Positions 30,757 through 37,237 of a stretch of DNA of 64,000 nt are shown here, piece by piece. Below the pieces are notes generated by a model. That model did no database searches. It was given only the letters and a program-made list of their open reading frames with translations, and was not told where the DNA came from. Positions within the stretch are counted from its first letter, which is position 1, and each line of letters begins with the position of its first letter. Source of the stretch: Chloroflexota bacterium (GTDB lineage Bacteria; Chloroflexota; Dehalococcoidia; Lucifugimonadales; GCA-002723415); the NCBI GenBank assembly GCA_002723415.1, contig PBOA01000033.1:4752-68751 (forward strand), written 5' to 3'. A program made the translations under genes and the position numbers.

Positions 30757-31167
30757 TTATAAAATACCCACAGCTTTTATTTCAACTAAGTATTCATCAC
30801 TAACTAAAGATTCTACAACAATCAATGTGTTCGCTGGATAATCCCCTTCTGGAAAATAATTAGCAAAAACTTCTTTTCTAGCATCTAGAAAAGGTTTAAT
30901 TGAGTCTCTCCCAACTAAATAAGTTGTAAATTCTAATAAATCCCCCATATCTGCCCCTTGGCTGTTTAATATAAGTTGAATGTTTCTAAATGTCTGTACT
31001 GTTTGTTCAAACACATTTCTTTCTCCAACTAATATTCCATTTATATCTACCCCTACTTGACCAGATATAAAAATCAAATCATTATTATTGGATTTCACTG
31101 CTTGAGAATATAAACCTAAAGCCTTTGGTGCATTTTTTGTTTTTATAATTGACTTTGTTCTAACCAT
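30757..31167 (-). CDS. RidA/YjgF family imine/enamine deaminase
   Basis: AP.A.G.YSQAV, FISGQ, Q..Q...NI, LVEI.A. Confidence 0.9.
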   Translation of the reverse strand: MVRTKSIIKTKNAPKALGLYSQAVKSNNNDLIFISGQVGVDINGILVGERNVFEQTVQTFRNIQLILNSQGADMGDLLEFTTYLVGRDSIKPFLDARKEVFANYFPEGDYPANTLIVVESLVSDEYLVEIKAVGIL

Positions 31168-31292
31168 TTTTATTCTTTCTCCTTAACAATATATAATTTT
31201 TTTAATCACTATTATTAAACGACTTAATCTGTTCTATAAATTTTTCTATACTAGCCCAAATTTTATTTAAAATTGTTAAATCAATTAACTTT

Positions 31293-32081
31293 TTATAAAG
31301 ATTTAATACAATCATTATCTAGTGGATTTAATGGAGAAAAATCTCTGTTATTTTGATACCAAGGCCTAGTATCTTTTGTACATGCATTGCTCACAGCATT
31401 ATAATTCATATAAATTATTGATCTAGTCCATGGAGAAACATTATTTGCAGATCCATGTAAAACATTACAATGTACAAAAGCAACAGATCCAGACAACCCA
31501 ATTAATGGCTCTATCCCGTATTTATTAGCTAATCCCTCTAATATATCATTAGTTATATGATGCAATTCATATCCCTTGCCTTTAGCATCTTTATGTAAAG
31601 ATGAAGTTAATAATCCTTCTTTATGTGAACCCGGTAAAACAAGCAAAGGCGATTTTACTGTAATACAATCATCAATAAAAATACTAGCCATAATACATTT
31701 TGGTTTTAGCATACCATCAATTTTATGAAATGGAGGGAAATCTTGATGCCAATCCCACGAAGCACCTGACCCAAAGCCTTGCTTTGGGTTTAATCTACTT
31801 TGATGTAAATATACATCTTCATTTAACAACTGTTTAACAGGATTTAATATTTTTGGATGAAGAGATAACCTATGAAAAGATTCTGAGTATTTATGAACAC
31901 CAAAAGCTAATCTGGTAGCTGAATCATCATTTTTTTCTCTAATTATTTCTGGACCTTTTCGTTTATATATATCAGTTAAAGAAGATTTAAGTTTATTAAT
32001 TTCTTCTATATCAAGTAAAGAAGGGAAAAATAAATAACCTTTTGTATTATATTCTTCAATTTGAGATTCAGTTAAAATCAT
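31293..32081 (-). CDS. PhyH family dioxygenase, ectoine/proline hydroxylase-like
   Basis: VY.HQ...N.K, WDWHQDF..FH..DGM (variant of the EctD signature), PGSH, HGS..N..P..R. Confidence 0.85.
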   Translation of the reverse strand: MILTESQIEEYNTKGYLFFPSLLDIEEINKLKSSLTDIYKRKGPEIIREKNDDSATRLAFGVHKYSESFHRLSLHPKILNPVKQLLNEDVYLHQSRLNPKQGFGSGASWDWHQDFPPFHKIDGMLKPKCIMASIFIDDCITVKSPLLVLPGSHKEGLLTSSLHKDAKGKGYELHHITNDILEGLANKYGIEPLIGLSGSVAFVHCNVLHGSANNVSPWTRSIIYMNYNAVSNACTKDTRPWYQNNRDFSPLNPLDNDCIKSL

Positions 32082-32108: not shown

Positions 32109-33203
32109 TTACTGAGTGCAACCTCTACCTGGAATATCCCATACTTCTTCAACTATTCCATTTCTAACACATATATATTGGTCCCATCTGTTTACAAGCA
32201 TATCCTGGTAATCCGGTTCAAGTAATAATTTATCTCCAATAGATAAAGAATTAGCTTTGTCTGTTGAAAAAACTACATGGTTTTCAAAAAATTTGTCGAT
32301 TTTAACATCAGTCCTCGAATATACAGTAGGGGCAATACCTGCCCAAGAATGTGCAGAAGTGCCGACATCACCAATAAATTTACAATCTGATGGATTACTT
32401 ATTACAGTAGTAAGAATTTTATTCGCAATTTTATATCCCATATAATCATACCTATGCCCCATCAACGCATAAGTACCTCCTTCAACCTCTGTAACTCCAG
32501 GTATTTGTGTAGCAACATCAATCGTAAACGTTTCTCCACTTGAAACAATCTCTACTGGTATACCTTCTAGTTCTATAGCATTTTTAACATCTAAACAAAT
32601 TTGTATAGTGTCTCTTCCAATTTTCCATCTATCTTCATGATCGATAAATTCAGGCAAGGATTGGTGGCTCATAACTCCCTTAAATTTAACCCCAGGAAGC
32701 TCTTGGGTCATTTTAGCAATTGCAACCCCTTCTTCGTTACTACGCACTCCAGCCCTGCCCATTTGAGTATCTACTTCTATTAAAATACCTATTTCAACTG
32801 AATGATTTGATGCAATTGATGAAATAATTTTAACATTTTCAATATTATCCACGCAAACTTTAATATCAGCTTGTTTAGCTAAAGCACACATACGTGAAAT
32901 TTTATCTGGATGTACTACTTGATTAGGGATTAATACATCATTTACTCCTCCTTCAACCATTACTTCAGCTTCAGATAATTTTGCTGTACAAACACCACCA
33001 ACAGTTCCACCCATATTTATTTGCCTTAAAGCTAATCTTGGACTTTTAATATTCTTTGTATGTTGCCTCATTTTACATACTGTATCTTTATAAAGATCAG
33101 TAACTGACTGTAAATTATGGTCTAAAGCATTAAGGTCAACAATTAAAGAAGGTGTATCTAAATCTTCTAATAATGTCCCTGGCAAAGGTCTATAATTATC
33201 CAT
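32109..33203 (-). CDS. Fold-type III PLP enzyme (D-threonine aldolase/D-serine dehydratase family), catalytic Lys present
   Basis: LDTP...VD, RQHTKNIK, AKLSEAE, EVD...GRAG, SGET, TEV..G.Y. Confidence 0.88.
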   Translation of the reverse strand: MDNYRPLPGTLLEDLDTPSLIVDLNALDHNLQSVTDLYKDTVCKMRQHTKNIKSPRLALRQINMGGTVGGVCTAKLSEAEVMVEGGVNDVLIPNQVVHPDKISRMCALAKQADIKVCVDNIENVKIISSIASNHSVEIGILIEVDTQMGRAGVRSNEEGVAIAKMTQELPGVKFKGVMSHQSLPEFIDHEDRWKIGRDTIQICLDVKNAIELEGIPVEIVSSGETFTIDVATQIPGVTEVEGGTYALMGHRYDYMGYKIANKILTTVISNPSDCKFIGDVGTSAHSWAGIAPTVYSRTDVKIDKFFENHVVFSTDKANSLSIGDKLLLEPDYQDMLVNRWDQYICVRNGIVEEVWDIPGRGCTQ

Positions 33204-33224
33204 CCATTCTCTCCTTGAAATTAT

Positions 33225-34361
33225 TTAACGGTAATGGCCTCGAGCTGGCAAATTCCAAATAGATTCTAAAGTTCCACCTCTAATACCAAACATATAATCA
33301 TGTAAATTCACACATGCAGTTATATCATAAGGAATGCACCAAATCCTATCTCCCAATTTTAAATTTTCGTTTTCCCATTCAAATTCTATATTCCCATGCT
33401 CAGCACTAAGCCCTGTCACAATTGCACCTTTTATACTTGCTTCAGGAGAACCTAAATCCCCTCCGATAGCCTTTCTCCCTCCGTCAGTAATTATGGTTTT
33501 TGAAGTAGGTAAGCTTGTCACACAAGTCATAACTCTTGCTGCATTTTTAAATTCAGTCCTTAAAGCTTTATATTTAGCATCCATTAATGCATATGATCCA
33601 GCAACAATATCAGTTATACCAGAAAGAGAAGCAACATCTAGATAGTCATAAGTACTCCCATAAACTACAGAATTAACATCAATACCATTAATTTGAATTT
33701 GTTCTCGAAAATTTAAAATTTTCTGAGCAAATTCAACAGACTCTTTATTTTTCTTATTAAATTCTGACACGTTATAACTATTATCTTCTGGTCCACTTTC
33801 TGACACATAATTATTTATATATTTACCAAATAAACCTTGAAAATTTACCCCAGGCAAATTAACTAGATTATTACAAATTTCTTGAGCTTCAGTTCCTGGC
33901 AATACGCCTAAACTATCCTCATAACAACGAATAACAAGAAGTATATTAATTTCTACTCCAGAAAATTTAGCAGCGTCTGATAAATCTTGTGCATTAGATA
34001 AATTATCTACCAACAAAGTTATATTAACGTTCTTGGCTAAAGAACATAAACGCTTAATTTTACTTTTATTATAAATAATATTTGAAATAAAAATATCATT
34101 TAATCCATTTTGCGCAAAAACTTCTGCTTGACCTAATGTAGAAACAGTAATCCCTGAAGTAGAAGAATATTCAACTTGCTTATGAGCTATTGCTGGAGAA
34201 CCGTGAGCACCAACATAAGGTTTTACATTTAACCCTTTAGATTCTATGAAAGTATTCATATAATTTAAATTATACTCTAAGAAATCTAAGTCTATCATTA
34301 AGCCCGGTGTATCTAATTCTATTTCTTGTGTACCTATATCTTTAAATATTGGTCTTTCCAT
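33225..34361 (-). CDS. Fold-type III PLP enzyme paralog lacking the Schiff-base Lys
   Basis: LDTP..ID, KPYVGAHGS in place of RPHxKTHK, AGSYALMD, DGGRKA, SAEHG, VNLHD. Confidence 0.85.
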   Translation of the reverse strand: MERPIFKDIGTQEIELDTPGLMIDLDFLEYNLNYMNTFIESKGLNVKPYVGAHGSPAIAHKQVEYSSTSGITVSTLGQAEVFAQNGLNDIFISNIIYNKSKIKRLCSLAKNVNITLLVDNLSNAQDLSDAAKFSGVEINILLVIRCYEDSLGVLPGTEAQEICNNLVNLPGVNFQGLFGKYINNYVSESGPEDNSYNVSEFNKKNKESVEFAQKILNFREQIQINGIDVNSVVYGSTYDYLDVASLSGITDIVAGSYALMDAKYKALRTEFKNAARVMTCVTSLPTSKTIITDGGRKAIGGDLGSPEASIKGAIVTGLSAEHGNIEFEWENENLKLGDRIWCIPYDITACVNLHDYMFGIRGGTLESIWNLPARGHYR

Positions 34362-34507
34362 TTACATTTTTCCTTATTTAATTTATATAAATAACAAATA
34401 GGAGATTATCATAAATAACTTCATAAATAAATGCCTCTTGACGAAAAATAATTAATATTTAAAAATAATCACATAGTTAATTAAACTGAAAGTACTTTTT
34501 ATATATA

Positions 34508-35047
34508 ATGCTAGATTTTGAACTGATTAATAATGAAAATATTGTTAATAATATATTTATATCTAATAAAGATAATTTTTCTGACAACTTAATATTAACT
34601 AATAAGCGTTTAGTTAATATTAAAAAAGAAAAAAACAAAACCCATTTAAAGGTTATTTCTATTGAAGAAGTAAGTGAAATAGAATGCAATTCAATATTAC
34701 CAAATAATCAATCTATAATTTGGAGTATAACTGCATTTGCTACTGGGATATTACTATATTTAGCTTTCAAAGAAACAATCTTAGGAACTCTTTTTTTTCT
34801 TTTCCTACTTTCACTTGGAGTTTATTTAACTATTGATTATTTAACTTCAAAAAAATATCAAAAGTTAATATTTAAAACAAAATCTAACAATAGCAATATT
34901 GAATATACTATAAATAAAGATAAAGCAGAATTCGATACTCAATATTTCATCAAATTATTTTTTAAATTACGATGGAAATTATTACATGAAAACAAACTAA
35001 ATATAACTAGCCCTAGACACAAACAAATTTTCCCAAGATATAAATAA
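34508..35047 (+). CDS. Hypothetical membrane protein (2 TM, PH-like 'LILTNKRL' segment)
   Basis: 179 aa ORF with two hydrophobic helices. Confidence 0.6.
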   Translation: MLDFELINNENIVNNIFISNKDNFSDNLILTNKRLVNIKKEKNKTHLKVISIEEVSEIECNSILPNNQSIIWSITAFATGILLYLAFKETILGTLFFLFLLSLGVYLTIDYLTSKKYQKLIFKTKSNNSNIEYTINKDKAEFDTQYFIKLFFKLRWKLLHENKLNITSPRHKQIFPRYK

Positions 35048-35075: not shown

Positions 35076-36107
35076 TTATTTACTAGCATCAATTCTTAAA
35101 CTTGGATACACATCTAAATCCCATTGGTAAGCCAAATTATTTTTCAACCTAAAATATGCTGCTGAGGCAATCATAGCTCCATTGTCAGTACATAAAGATG
35201 GTCTAGGAATAAATAGGTCTATGGGAGATTCTTTTGCAAATACATCCCTTAATAATTTATTCGCGGCAACCCCTCCTCCAATAATTAAGCCCTTAGCTTT
35301 GTATTTTTTTACAGCCCCAATAGTATTTCTTACTATAGTATCCACTATAGCATCTTGAAAGGATTTAGCAATGTCAGCTATTTTCTGATCTATATTATCA
35401 ATAGAATTATTAGGGTAAACTCCCATTAATTCAGCTCTTCTTACAACTGAAGTTTTCAAACCACTAAAACTAAAATCCATCGAATTTTTGACCTTTGGCC
35501 TAGGAAATTCAGGTTTTAACAAACTGCCTTTCACAGAAACCTTTTGAATTTCTGGCCCTCCTGGGAAACCCAAACCTAAAACTCTCGCAACTTTATCAAA
35601 AACTTCTCCAGCAGCATCATCTCTAGATCGAGCTATAATCTGAAAATCTCCATGCCCTTTCATCAAAATCAAATCAGTATGCCCTCCAGATACAACTAAA
35701 GATATAAGAGGAAACCCCGGGTTTTCTCTTATATCTACATCTTCCAAGCATGTTGCATATATATGCCCTTCAATATGATTCACTCCTATGAAAGGCAATC
35801 CTGCCGCTATTGCCATAGATTTAGCAGTATTTACTCCAATCAATAATGATCCAGCCAAACCAGGCCCACAAGTAACAGATAAAGCATCTATATCTTTCAA
35901 ATCCATTTTTGCTTCAGTTAATGCTTTATTTATTGCAGGTACAATCTTTACTATGTGCTCTCGAGAAGCTACTTCAGGGATAATACCACCAAATTCTGAA
36001 TGCATATCAGCTTGAGAAAAAACAATGTTTGTAATTATATTTCTACCATCCTCAACAATCCCTACAGCAGTATCATCACATGAAGTTTCTATACCTAATA
36101 TTTTCAT
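35076..36107 (-). CDS. tsaD: tRNA N6-adenosine threonylcarbamoyltransferase
   Basis: LGIETSCDDT, PEVASR.H, GPGL.GSL, H.EGH, SGGHT, DDAAGE.FDK, GGVAAN, CTDNGAMI. Confidence 0.97.
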   Translation of the reverse strand: MKILGIETSCDDTAVGIVEDGRNIITNIVFSQADMHSEFGGIIPEVASREHIVKIVPAINKALTEAKMDLKDIDALSVTCGPGLAGSLLIGVNTAKSMAIAAGLPFIGVNHIEGHIYATCLEDVDIRENPGFPLISLVVSGGHTDLILMKGHGDFQIIARSRDDAAGEVFDKVARVLGLGFPGGPEIQKVSVKGSLLKPEFPRPKVKNSMDFSFSGLKTSVVRRAELMGVYPNNSIDNIDQKIADIAKSFQDAIVDTIVRNTIGAVKKYKAKGLIIGGGVAANKLLRDVFAKESPIDLFIPRPSLCTDNGAMIASAAYFRLKNNLAYQWDLDVYPSLRIDASK

Positions 36108-37237
36108 AATTGATTACCTTTATAATATTTATCAGAAAAAACTTCATTAGGTAAAAAAGATTTTCGACTAGACCCATATTTATAATCTATACCTTTAGTT
36201 GTAACAACACTTATAGAAGTATAAAAATCACTCTCTCCACTAACTCCACTACCATTTCCTCCGCCATGCCCTCTTAACCATTGAGGGTCAATTAATTGAA
36301 TCCCTTTCCAATTTCCATTTGTAGCTAACAAGTGTCCAAATCTAGCTAAATCAGAAGCACTTATCACGATCCAACCTGGGCCACTTCTCACAGGTATATT
36401 ATTTATAACATAAGGAGGGTCTAAATAGGTATATGAATCTGGAATATCAGGATAAAAATATTTTTGAGATTTGACGAATTCACCAGTATACCAATCCCAG
36501 TTATTAGATTTGATTCCAATTTTTGAAAATAGTCGCTCATCAACGACATCCTTTAAGTCTCTATTCCAAAGAGAAGTCAATGCTTGACCTAGCCTCCAAA
36601 AACCTGCACTACTATATACTCCTTGAGTACCTGGTTCTATATGAGAATACAAATCATATGAAGGATCGCCAGTCCATGTGCTCCAATTTGGTATTCCATA
36701 GACACTTTTATCGTCTTCTAATCCAGTTCGTTTTTCTTGCCACCTTATTCCCATTTCCATTGGAAATCCTCCAAAATGTAAATCCCCATATTTATATCCA
36801 ATAATATGCCTCCAAGTTAAGGTTTTATGATAACCTTGATCTAAATATTTGTGAGAATGTGATAGCTCAGCTTCACCAGTCCAGGTTTTATATATGAGAT
36901 CATCAGGATTTATAAGCCCATCCTCTATTGCACAGCCTATTAAAACCCAACATAAAGCTTTACCTACAGATGCTGTGTGGAATCTGTAATTTCTATCACC
37001 CCATTCATGTATTATATAGCCACCTCTAGTAATGACAGTACCAAATTTATTATCACAATGATCTTCTCCTCCAAAATTTGCACCTTTAACATTAAGGGTA
37101 CTGATCCAAGTATTAAATATACTAGAATTGATGCCTAATTTATCTAAATTTTTTAAATCCCAATCTTCATCAGGAAATGTAACCCAATCAGGTATTTTCT
37201 TGAGTTTCACATATAATCCTTTAATAAAAAGTACCAC
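36104..37237 (-). CDS. Serine hydrolase, beta-lactamase class C-like (likely GTG start at 37210)
   Basis: SVGK (SxxK), PG....YSS, ISA.DLARFG.L....G.W.G.QLI...W. Confidence 0.8.
   Translation of the reverse strand: MVLFIKGLYVKLKKIPDWVTFPDEDWDLKNLDKLGINSSIFNTWISTLNVKGANFGGEDHCDNKFGTVITRGGYIIHEWGDRNYRFHTASVGKALCWVLIGCAIEDGLINPDDLIYKTWTGEAELSHSHKYLDQGYHKTLTWRHIIGYKYGDLHFGGFPMEMGIRWQEKRTGLEDDKSVYGIPNWSTWTGDPSYDLYSHIEPGTQGVYSSAGFWRLGQALTSLWNRDLKDVVDERLFSKIGIKSNNWDWYTGEFVKSQKYFYPDIPDSYTYLDPPYVINNIPVRSGPGWIVISASDLARFGHLLATNGNWKGIQLIDPQWLRGHGGGNGSGVSGESDFYTSISVVTTKGIDYKYGSSRKSFLPNEVFSDKYYKGNQL

Follow-up and report, generated by a model that had tools for sequence, protein, structure and literature searches.

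Two adjacent DSD1/D-threonine-aldolase-family paralogues in a SAR202-type Chloroflexota genome: a candidate obligate heterodimer with one composite active site

We analysed a window of 64,000 nucleotides (contig PBOA01000033.1 of assembly GCA_002723415.1, positions 4,752 to 68,751 of the forward strand) from a SAR202-type Chloroflexota genome of 1.86 Mb in 37 contigs; the G+C content of the window is ~30%. It harbours two adjacent genes, called A and B hereafter, coding for paralogues of the DSD1/D-threonine aldolase (DTA) family of enzymes that depend on pyridoxal 5'-phosphate (PLP). We propose, with a probability of roughly 0.78, that A and B form an obligate head-to-tail heterodimer with one composite active site, which would have arisen by reciprocal degeneration. 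The initial annotation of this stretch had put forward such a heterodimer. At the sequence level, the proposal is supported by complementary conservation, co-occurrence of the two genes, a single duplication and selection on A. The two open reading frames (ORFs), their positions and orientation and the 21-nt gap between them agree with the ORF list and with translation, as follows.

33225..34361, minus strand: gene A, DSD1/DTA-family paralogue without the PLP Lys, 378 aa (ORF list, Pfam PF01168 and PF14031, PDB matches)
33204..33224, minus strand: A-B spacer of 21 nt, with AAGGAG 7 nt 5' of the ATG of B, a strong ribosome-binding site (sequence)
32109..33203, minus strand: gene B, DSD1/DTA-family paralogue with the Lys, 364 aa (ORF list, Pfam, PDB matches)

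A and B are co-oriented on the minus strand and share 29% identity in a pairwise alignment. Both contain the Ala_racemase_N and D-ser_dehydrat domains, each of which passes its Pfam gathering cutoff. Full-length alignments to the solved structures 4v15, 7dib and 6qkb revealed the DSD1/D-threonine aldolase/D-serine dehydratase architecture in both proteins, with an N-terminal barrel and a C-terminal beta domain. 4v15 (AxDTA) and 7dib are D-threonine aldolases, and 6qkb is the 3-hydroxy-D-aspartate aldolase BhcC. These three structures are the best PDB matches of A (E ~1e-35), and those of B, whose values range from 8e-58 to 1e-40, are 6qkb (E 8e-58) and 4v15 (E 4e-51). The records of the homologues are named 'alanine racemase', 'BhcC' or 'DSD1 family PLP-dependent enzyme'. 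We rejected a BhcC identity, as the scores against the NCBIfam equivalog NF045642 are 181 bits for A and 239 bits for B with a curated cutoff of 690; the names 'BhcC' and 'alanine racemase' are thus unsupported. The genome of the window codes for four members of the family, namely A, B, one canonical protein with a complete set of Lys, Arg, His/Asp and DEH, and a distant one.

The report on AxDTA (PMC4401734) describes an active site located mainly in the barrel of one protomer and completed by loops 295-298 and 319-323 of the beta domain of its partner. The contribution of the partner's beta domain, on which the initial annotation relied, is therefore in print for this enzyme. According to the same source, the cis contacts to PLP are Lys59, Tyr187, Gln249, Thr233/Gly251/Ser252/Tyr260, Gln81 and Arg157, the Mn ligands His347 and Asp349 also act in cis, and Arg157 binds both O3' of PLP and the substrate carboxylate (PMC4401734). 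The carboxylate is also held by Asp321 of the second protomer through its main-chain amide, the sole substrate contact stated there for that protomer (PMC4401734).

We mapped the residues of A and B by alignment to AxDTA (4v15) and rechecked the coordinates by translation. The AxDTA motif RPHAKAHKCP corresponds to KPYVGAHGSP in A, with Gly51 in place of Lys59 and Gly54 in place of Lys62, and GQGRCG corresponds to EDSLG, with Ser150 in place of Arg157. The beta-domain motifs DGGRKA, SAEH(G) and NLHD are retained in A. B has kept Lys50 (RQHTKNIKSP) and Arg150 (MGRAG). At the metal-ligand positions His347/Asp349, Asp/Thr is found in A (PYDIT) and Tyr/Asp in B (PDYQD); the metal-ligand pairs of the family (His and Asp in aldolases, His and Cys in dehydratases) are absent as a set from both. 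The losses of Lys and Arg in A, of beta-domain motifs in B and of the metal His in both, pointed out in the initial annotation, are thus all confirmed by the alignment to 4v15. Among the features of a catalytically competent family member, the Lys and the Arg are present in B and not in A, and the trans loops are present in A and not in B. As A is devoid of the cis residues and has both trans loops, and B is the opposite, the pattern maps onto the two halves of an AxDTA-type site. The corresponding features are listed below.

34329..34361, minus strand: N-terminal arm of A, MERPIFKDIGT, nearly invariant in the A clade (alignment, modelled interface)
34209..34211, minus strand: Gly51 codon of A at the position of the PLP Schiff-base Lys, AxDTA Lys59 (alignment, translation)
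33468..33485, minus strand: trans loop 1 of A, DGGRKA, AxDTA 293-298 (conservation, modelled interface)
33396..33407, minus strand: trans loop 2 of A, SAEH, AxDTA 320-323 (conservation, modelled interface)
33054..33056, minus strand: Lys50 of B, PLP Schiff-base Lys (alignment, conservation)
32754..32756, minus strand: Arg150 of B, equivalent to AxDTA Arg157 (alignment, conservation)
32481..32483, minus strand: Glu241 of B, equivalent to AxDTA Gln249, the partner of the PLP pyridine N (conservation)
32277..32369, minus strand: degenerate counterparts of the trans loops in B, DVGTSA ... FFENH (variable columns, translation)
32181..32210, minus strand: remodelled metal-site segment of B, YQD...NRWD, AxDTA His347, Asp349 and 353-356 (conservation)

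The same division runs through the relatives. Residue percentages were collected by alignment column from 137 A-type and 135 B-type sequences.

AxDTA K59: A, E 37, S 26, A 14; B, K 100
AxDTA K62: A, G 51, R 40; B, K 99
AxDTA Q81: A, S/A/T; B, A 99
AxDTA R157: A, G 31, L 20, R 16; B, R 100
AxDTA Y187: A, Y 68; B, H 100
AxDTA Q249: A, P 72; B, E 96
AxDTA K297: A, K 100; B, R 46, L 28, M 8
AxDTA N320-H323: A, S 100, A 100, E 99, H 100; B, variable, then a 2-residue deletion
AxDTA H347: A, D 88; B, Y 76, Q 11, H 11
AxDTA D349: A, G 44, A 40; B, D 100

D293, G295 and K297 are present in 100% of the A-type sequences. The N-terminal arm, MERPIFKPIGT, is nearly invariant in the A clade and a C-terminal ARG-R/H-Y-R tail is conserved; among 67 diverse A-type sequences, 43 columns are invariant, including R3, P4, I5, K7, G10 and T11 of the arm. 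The B clade is characterized by an invariant Arg-Trp (NRWD), a C-terminal GRGC and a conserved segment around the metal site (Q333 99%, D334 100%, R339 98%, W340 97%). The only A-type sequence with Lys in the K59 column is a basal copy described below. We looked for a compensating Lys in A, a possibility raised in the initial annotation, and found none: the conserved lysines of A are K7 in the arm, K101, which is family-wide and not the PLP Lys, and K297 in the trans loop, and the barrel has no A-specific conserved Lys.

Several samples gave the same picture. In a set of 40 genomes from as many families of the order, an A orthologue adjoins a B orthologue in the same gene order in 19, that of the window included, and one further genome (G027), the 20th, contains a highly divergent A-B pair. 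The Lys column is occupied by another residue in 18/19 of these A orthologues and by Lys in 19/19 of the B orthologues. The Lys is likewise absent from all 120 of the closest homologues of A in a large protein collection (E 46, S 33, A 19, G 9, D 9, P 2, T 1, N 1). A pattern search with one genome per species yielded 479 A relatives, and the best 80 loci of the 479 comprise 75 A-type loci and five canonical enzymes (L126-L130); the Lys is found in 0/75 of the former, and K297 with SAEH in 75/75. Similarly, 24 of the representatives of clusters at 50% identity are A-type, all without Lys, and 23 of them have K297 and x-A-E-H. The exception, P0252, is matched in two stretches that leave the K297/x-A-E-H part unaligned. 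The other aligned representatives have Lys59 in all but two N-terminally truncated rows, and K297 and E-H in nearly all. The loss of Lys is thus not sporadic, as the initial annotation had allowed that it might be; it extends across the clade. The complementary pattern recurs in every orthologous A/B pair examined, and judged from these alignments it is far beyond what chance would produce.

The titles of the records of these relatives read Dehalococcoidia, Chloroflexota or 'SAR202 cluster'. Typical A-B pairs also occur on short contigs of a Candidatus Entotheonella palauensis record (L131) and of a 'Proteobacteria bacterium' metagenome-assembled genome (L120), which may reflect mis-binning or lateral transfer.

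A maximum-likelihood tree of 86 rows, built by a quick IQ-TREE search with Shimodaira-Hasegawa-like approximate likelihood-ratio test (SH-aLRT) support only, recovered an A clade (99) and a B clade (100) as sisters (97). This topology indicates that A and B are the sister clades of a single duplication.

The two genes are also found together. B is located directly downstream in 61 of the 75 A-type loci, and all 61 of these B genes code for the Lys. Three of the other 14 loci stop at a contig edge, and 11 have at least 2.4 kb of flanking sequence without B. We searched 10 of the 11 corresponding genomes and detected a B orthologue, 57-67% identical, elsewhere in all 10, up to ~1 Mb away. We then used 200 genomes of the order, evenly drawn and at least 80% complete, with thresholds of E<=1e-62 for A and E<=1e-85 for B. 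A was found in 88 and B in 107 of them, and A without B in none. Searches with an A profile identified an A-type gene, mostly adjoining B, in 19/19 of the genomes that appeared to have B only, and hence both genes are present in 107/107. Their presence is patchy inside some families (f7, 1/8; f14, 2/8; f25, 4/8), and A and B thus come and go together. In this lineage, which is abundant in the ocean, about half of the sampled genomes (107/200) have the pair as a core feature.

A is under purifying selection. Ratios of nonsynonymous to synonymous substitution rates (dN/dS), calculated by the Nei-Gojobori method for 19 locus pairs in which each locus was used once, are 0.04-0.22 for A and 0.03-0.21 for B, and are rough values since many dS exceed 1. 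Selection on A is thus not relaxed, another outcome that the initial annotation had envisaged. The ratio is higher for the barrel than for the beta domain of A in 14/19 pairs, and the reverse holds for B in 11/18. A evolves faster than B, with mean pairwise identities of 0.546 vs 0.612 and a lower value for A in 541/600 genome pairs; A shares 76% and B 91% identity with the closest cluster representatives. Mean column entropy follows the halves of the proposed site: for the halves of the modelled interface it is 0.69 bits for B barrel plus A beta and 1.29 bits for A barrel plus B beta. For 80 matched pairs, some rows of which are the same genome reached twice, the values are 0.75 (B barrel), 0.87 (A beta), 1.60 (A barrel) and 1.10 bits (B beta).

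A model of the A-B complex gave interface scores (ipSAE) of 0.94, 0.94 and 0.93, compared with 0.00 for the best of three controls; the mark used for this score is reached by 58/80 solved complexes and by 2/110 mismatched pairs. The runs share at least 95% of their contacts, with a predicted local distance difference test (pLDDT) value of 94-95 for the partner. Lys50 and residues 74-75, 149-152, 334-335 and 338-341 of B contact A, and residues 293-298 and 319-322 of A contact B; trans loop 1 of A touches B residues 75, 338 and 363. The modelled interface also includes both C-termini and both N-terminal arms, with residues 1-5 of A. A and B are, by this model, compatible with the head-to-tail dimer of the family, and the model says nothing on a preference over self-pairing. 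A pattern of correlated change between A residue 296 and the C-terminus of B was discarded as confounded by phylogeny. A has an insertion of ~12 residues (YINNYVSESGPE) after the Tyr187 equivalent (window 33783-33827, A residues 179-193), which is common to only 3-6% of the A-type sequences; A residues 183-188 are in the modelled interface.

The course of events that we propose starts from a homodimeric PLP enzyme of the DSD1/D-threonine-aldolase type, for which one duplication would have been followed by reciprocal loss. The TIM barrel of B would bind PLP through Lys50, with Arg150, His180, Thr225, Glu241 and Asp334 as cis residues, and the beta domain of A would close this site in trans with its loops G295-x-K297-A298 and S319-A320-E321-H322. 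The second, pseudo-symmetric site, made of the A barrel and the B loops, would be non-catalytic, its Lys and Arg being gone, and each A-B dimer would presumably hold one PLP. With the second site dead, A would survive as a structural and catalytic helper rather than as an enzyme of its own. The argument for pairing A with B is that only this dimer sets conserved residues opposite conserved residues. An A-A dimer would have invariant loops facing a degenerate barrel, and a B-B dimer an invariant barrel facing degenerate loops.

Several observations weigh against the heterodimer proposal. The ipSAE values above stem from a single A-B complex model whose inputs, custom alignments and a PLP ligand, are unlike the calibration conditions, and the pass may be a memory of the interface, because homodimers of the family (4v15, 6qkb) are solved. 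The co-occurrence counts, 107/107 included, are descriptive and overstate the number of independent events, as kin are not independent. In no fewer than 11 lineages, the two genes are not linked. Moreover, orphan second B-type genes without an adjacent A were found in genus g54 (L142-L144) and in another genome (L145 in G104). The orphan B proteins are 48-54% identical to B of the window and have all B motifs, and each of these genomes also has a normal A-B pair; either B can function in the absence of an A of its own, or a single A is shared by two B subunits. Lastly, free decay of the A barrel is not seen in most lineages, and its dN/dS is ~0.1. His53 of A (AxDTA His61) is conserved at 100%, Thr237 at 97% and A254-G255-S256-Y257 at 99/99/83/100%, and His53 is present even in the eroded A copies read. 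The 'dead' site may thus keep a role, for example in ligand binding or stability.

A first alternative is a genuine heterodimer in which A is only stabilizing or regulatory, in a prozyme-like or allosteric manner, with its trans side chains unused and its barrel binding an effector or non-covalent PLP. The conserved His53, Thr237 and AGSY motif of the A barrel and its dN/dS are in keeping with such a role, as is the fact that the only second-protomer substrate contact stated in the AxDTA report is a main-chain amide, that of Asp321 (PMC4401734). Nevertheless, we consider it unlikely. The side chains of A K297 and S-A-E-H are 99-100% conserved and vary freely in B, which would be hard to explain if the backbone alone mattered, and the A barrels of families f28 and f49 are eroded with their loops kept, an observation that speaks against an essential site for a ligand in that barrel.

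More improbable still is that A and B act as separate proteins, B being a self-sufficient homodimer with a redesigned site and A a homodimeric, non-catalytic protein, for example a sensor or a binding protein, that synteny keeps close to B. The orphan second B genes and the unlinked pairs fit this explanation, and so does the conserved core neighbourhood ArgH-Rpe-TsaD, given which the adjacency of A and B could in part be inherited synteny. It is at odds with the presence of A in 107/107 genomes with B and of A without B in none, families with patchy presence included, and with the geometry of self-dimers, which would set an invariant part against a degenerate part. Furthermore, K297 and E322/H323 are present in nearly all canonical representatives of the family. 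That A is a decaying duplicate without function, a pseudogene in progress, has some appeal from its faster evolution and its missing catalytic residues, but is refuted by the intact reading frame in every locus read, the dN/dS of 0.04-0.22, the 43 invariant columns and the occurrence of A in at least 107/200 sampled genomes.

Among the cluster representatives at 50% identity, a canonical subfamily has Lys59, Tyr347-x-Asp349 and SAEH in one protein, which means that the metal-ligand His is not universal in the family. One of its members, P0283, also has the Arg-Trp of B and is, judging from its motifs, an ancestral-like, all-in-one state. No named family could be assigned to this Tyr-x-Asp and SAEH subfamily, as six representatives matched BhcC alone, with scores far under the cutoff.

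The pair of genome G017 (L019/L044, G017:C5:39024-41282) branches first in both clades, with support of 92 and 84 for the remainder. Lys59, Arg157, K297 and x-A-E-H are present in both of its copies, and this pair may stand for a stage with two sites that preceded degeneration. Just downstream of this pair, on the other strand, are genes for a glycine-cleavage-T-like protein and a DAO-family flavin adenine dinucleotide (FAD) oxidoreductase.

At the other extreme, the A profile matches the N- and C-terminal parts only of the A proteins of families f28 and f49 (G027, G087, G099, G184, G200). Three eroded A genes were read, all with intact reading frames.

L048:2618-3643, eroded A gene
L146:1002-2057, eroded A gene
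L147:2015-3061, eroded A gene

The barrels of these three proteins have neither the Lys nor the Arg nor the GSYALMD phosphate-loop motif. They retain the MERP arm, G-x-K, SAEH and the ARG-x-Y/F tail, and the corresponding B genes retain all B motifs. These eroded genes come from small genomes of ~1.3-2.2 Mb. A-type genes matched by the A profile in two pieces were also noted at G062:C8:4872-6077, G138:C5:80413-81450 and G193:C11:31120-32166, where a frameshift, an insertion or a divergent middle part may be present.

These forms could be ordered into four stages: an ancestor resembling a homodimer, whose motifs are all found in a single protein, as in P0283; a pair that has arisen by duplication and has both sites complete, as in the G017 lineage; a pair with one dead site, as in most lineages including that of the window; and a pair in which the barrel of the dead subunit would have eroded to a scaffold, as in f28 and f49. 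If so, living genomes of the clade preserve all the intermediates of reciprocal degeneration and make visible a route from a one-gene to a two-gene enzyme. Such living intermediates would allow the origin of obligate heteromers and pseudoenzymes from homomers to be tested directly on natural proteins. A single A may, in some of the genomes, be shared by two different B catalytic subunits.

The active site of B also differs from that of AxDTA, and from known aldolases and dehydratases, by Gln81 to Ala, Tyr187 to His, Gln249 to Glu, His347 to Tyr/Gln/His, Leu354 to Arg and His355 to Trp replacements, which are nearly invariant in B. The combination of a Glu next to the pyridine N with a His in the stacking position presumably recalls fold-type III decarboxylases rather than racemases. 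With this Glu, the predicted His stacking, no metal His, the invariant Arg-Trp and a C-terminal Cys, the PLP environment of B appears unlike those of characterized DSD1 enzymes. B may catalyse a reaction new to the family, with substrates of the D-amino-acid type from the dissolved organic matter of the ocean. We regard the combination of a living stage series of heteromer birth, a possible sharing of A and a possible reaction new to the family as a tentative proposal, rather doubtful when taken as a whole.

Among known systems, AxDTA (4v15) and BhcC (6qkb) are the best solved matches and have the same fold-type III, two-domain fold and Pfam architecture as A and B. All the solved family matches (10 PDB sequences for A, 11 for B) are one-gene enzymes, and AxDTA is a homodimer. 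The AxDTA-type head-to-tail dimer, with a barrel and partner loops, is described in PMC4401734. One gene provides two equivalent sites in AxDTA and BhcC; here, the cis and trans halves would be split over two paralogues.

A PLP enzyme with a Lys-less paralogous subunit has precedents in fold-type I. The subunits of serine palmitoyltransferase (SPT) are paralogous, only one of them has the PLP Lys, and the Lys-less one contributes to the shared site. Like the proposed A-B enzyme, SPT (LCB1/LCB2) is described as a two-subunit PLP enzyme (PMC3794620). It is a fold-type I, eukaryotic, membrane-bound enzyme that needs small subunits and is no relative of the DSD1 family. Closer in organization are Ser4 and Ser5 of SerTA in Serratia sp. 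ATCC 39006, reported in PMC11726168 as tandem bacterial PLP paralogues of which Ser4 is without the catalytic Lys. According to the same source, activity requires the heterocomplex, and catalysis depends in part on residues of the inactive subunit (PMC11726168). SerTA is a fold-type I sugar aminotransferase, forms a heterotetramer and belongs to a secondary-metabolite cluster of one organism, unlike A and B, which are fold-type III proteins and the core pair of a whole order. From the alignments and the tree, A and B share with SPT and SerTA the feature of two paralogous proteins with the PLP Lys in only one.

Dead paralogues that partner active enzymes form a second group of comparisons. Antizyme inhibitor is a dead paralogue of ornithine decarboxylase (ODC), of fold-type III. 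The prozymes of trypanosomatids are reported to be dead paralogues that partner or regulate active S-adenosylmethionine decarboxylase (AdoMetDC), deoxyhypusine synthase or PRMT1 (PMC5201418, PMC3663545, 10.1101/776112). The prozymes are not PLP fold-type III proteins, antizyme inhibitor is not known to complete the ODC site, and reciprocal loss is known in neither. Our literature search, with most subscription journals outside its coverage, returned no heteromeric or Lys-less member of the DSD1/DTA family and no such pair in fold-type III, and the SAR202 pangenome paper PMC6946804 mentions neither 'pyridoxal' nor 'aldolase'. Thus, a PLP enzyme with a Lys-less paralogue is known in fold-type I, and such a pair appears to be new for DSD1/DTA enzymes, with natural intermediates that are well documented as far as sequences can tell. 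If true, a two-gene, one-site form would change the annotation of the DSD1/DTA family and would warn against expressing single genes.

Genes for two other proteins follow the pair in the window.

31293..32081, minus strand: PhyH-family dioxygenase, 27 nt downstream of B (Pfam PhyH; NCBIfam ectoine hydroxylase, 145 bits vs a cutoff of 336)
30757..31167, minus strand: RidA-family protein, 125 nt after the PhyH gene (Pfam)

A PhyH gene adjoins the pair in 0/23 other loci and occurs within 2.5 kb of it in 0/80 loci; a RidA gene is found downstream on the same strand in 3/23 other loci, and within 2.5 kb in 0/80. Being particular to the lineage of the window, PhyH and RidA say little on the pair in general, and their arrangement, observed in the genome of the window alone, may reflect a lineage-specific pathway around it. 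The other neighbours differ by genome and include genes for TrxR-like, short-chain dehydrogenase/reductase (SDR) and amidohydrolase proteins, transposases and others. We attempted to deduce a function from gene neighbours and could infer no pathway; since the neighbours vary between genomes, the gene context is uninformative on the chemistry.

A scan for promoters and terminators was uninformative, with 24 promoter-like sites for 25.4 expected. Contigs from the metatranscriptomic libraries of two studies cover parts of both genes, and two of them, X1 (32125-33560) and X5 (33080-33307), span the A/B junction. We did not count them as evidence of expression, as contigs give no transcript, strand or level and DNA may be present in the libraries; the stretches that they leave uncovered (31224-31616, 34368-34600) carry no meaning.

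Upstream of the pair, between tsaD and gene A and on the opposite strand, lies an ORF of 179 aa without a Pfam match (window 34508-35047, plus strand). ORFs of similar size (172-195 aa) without Pfam matches occupy the same place in L030, L037, L040 and L042; tblastn at 1e-8 detected no match between them and the 179-aa ORF, the sequences being too diverged. Next to tsaD (window 35076-36107, minus strand), a gene coding for a beta-lactamase-fold protein of 377 aa with a weak Pfam match (window 36104-37237, minus strand) overlaps the tsaD start by 4 nt, and such a gene also lies close to A and B in at least one relative (L031).

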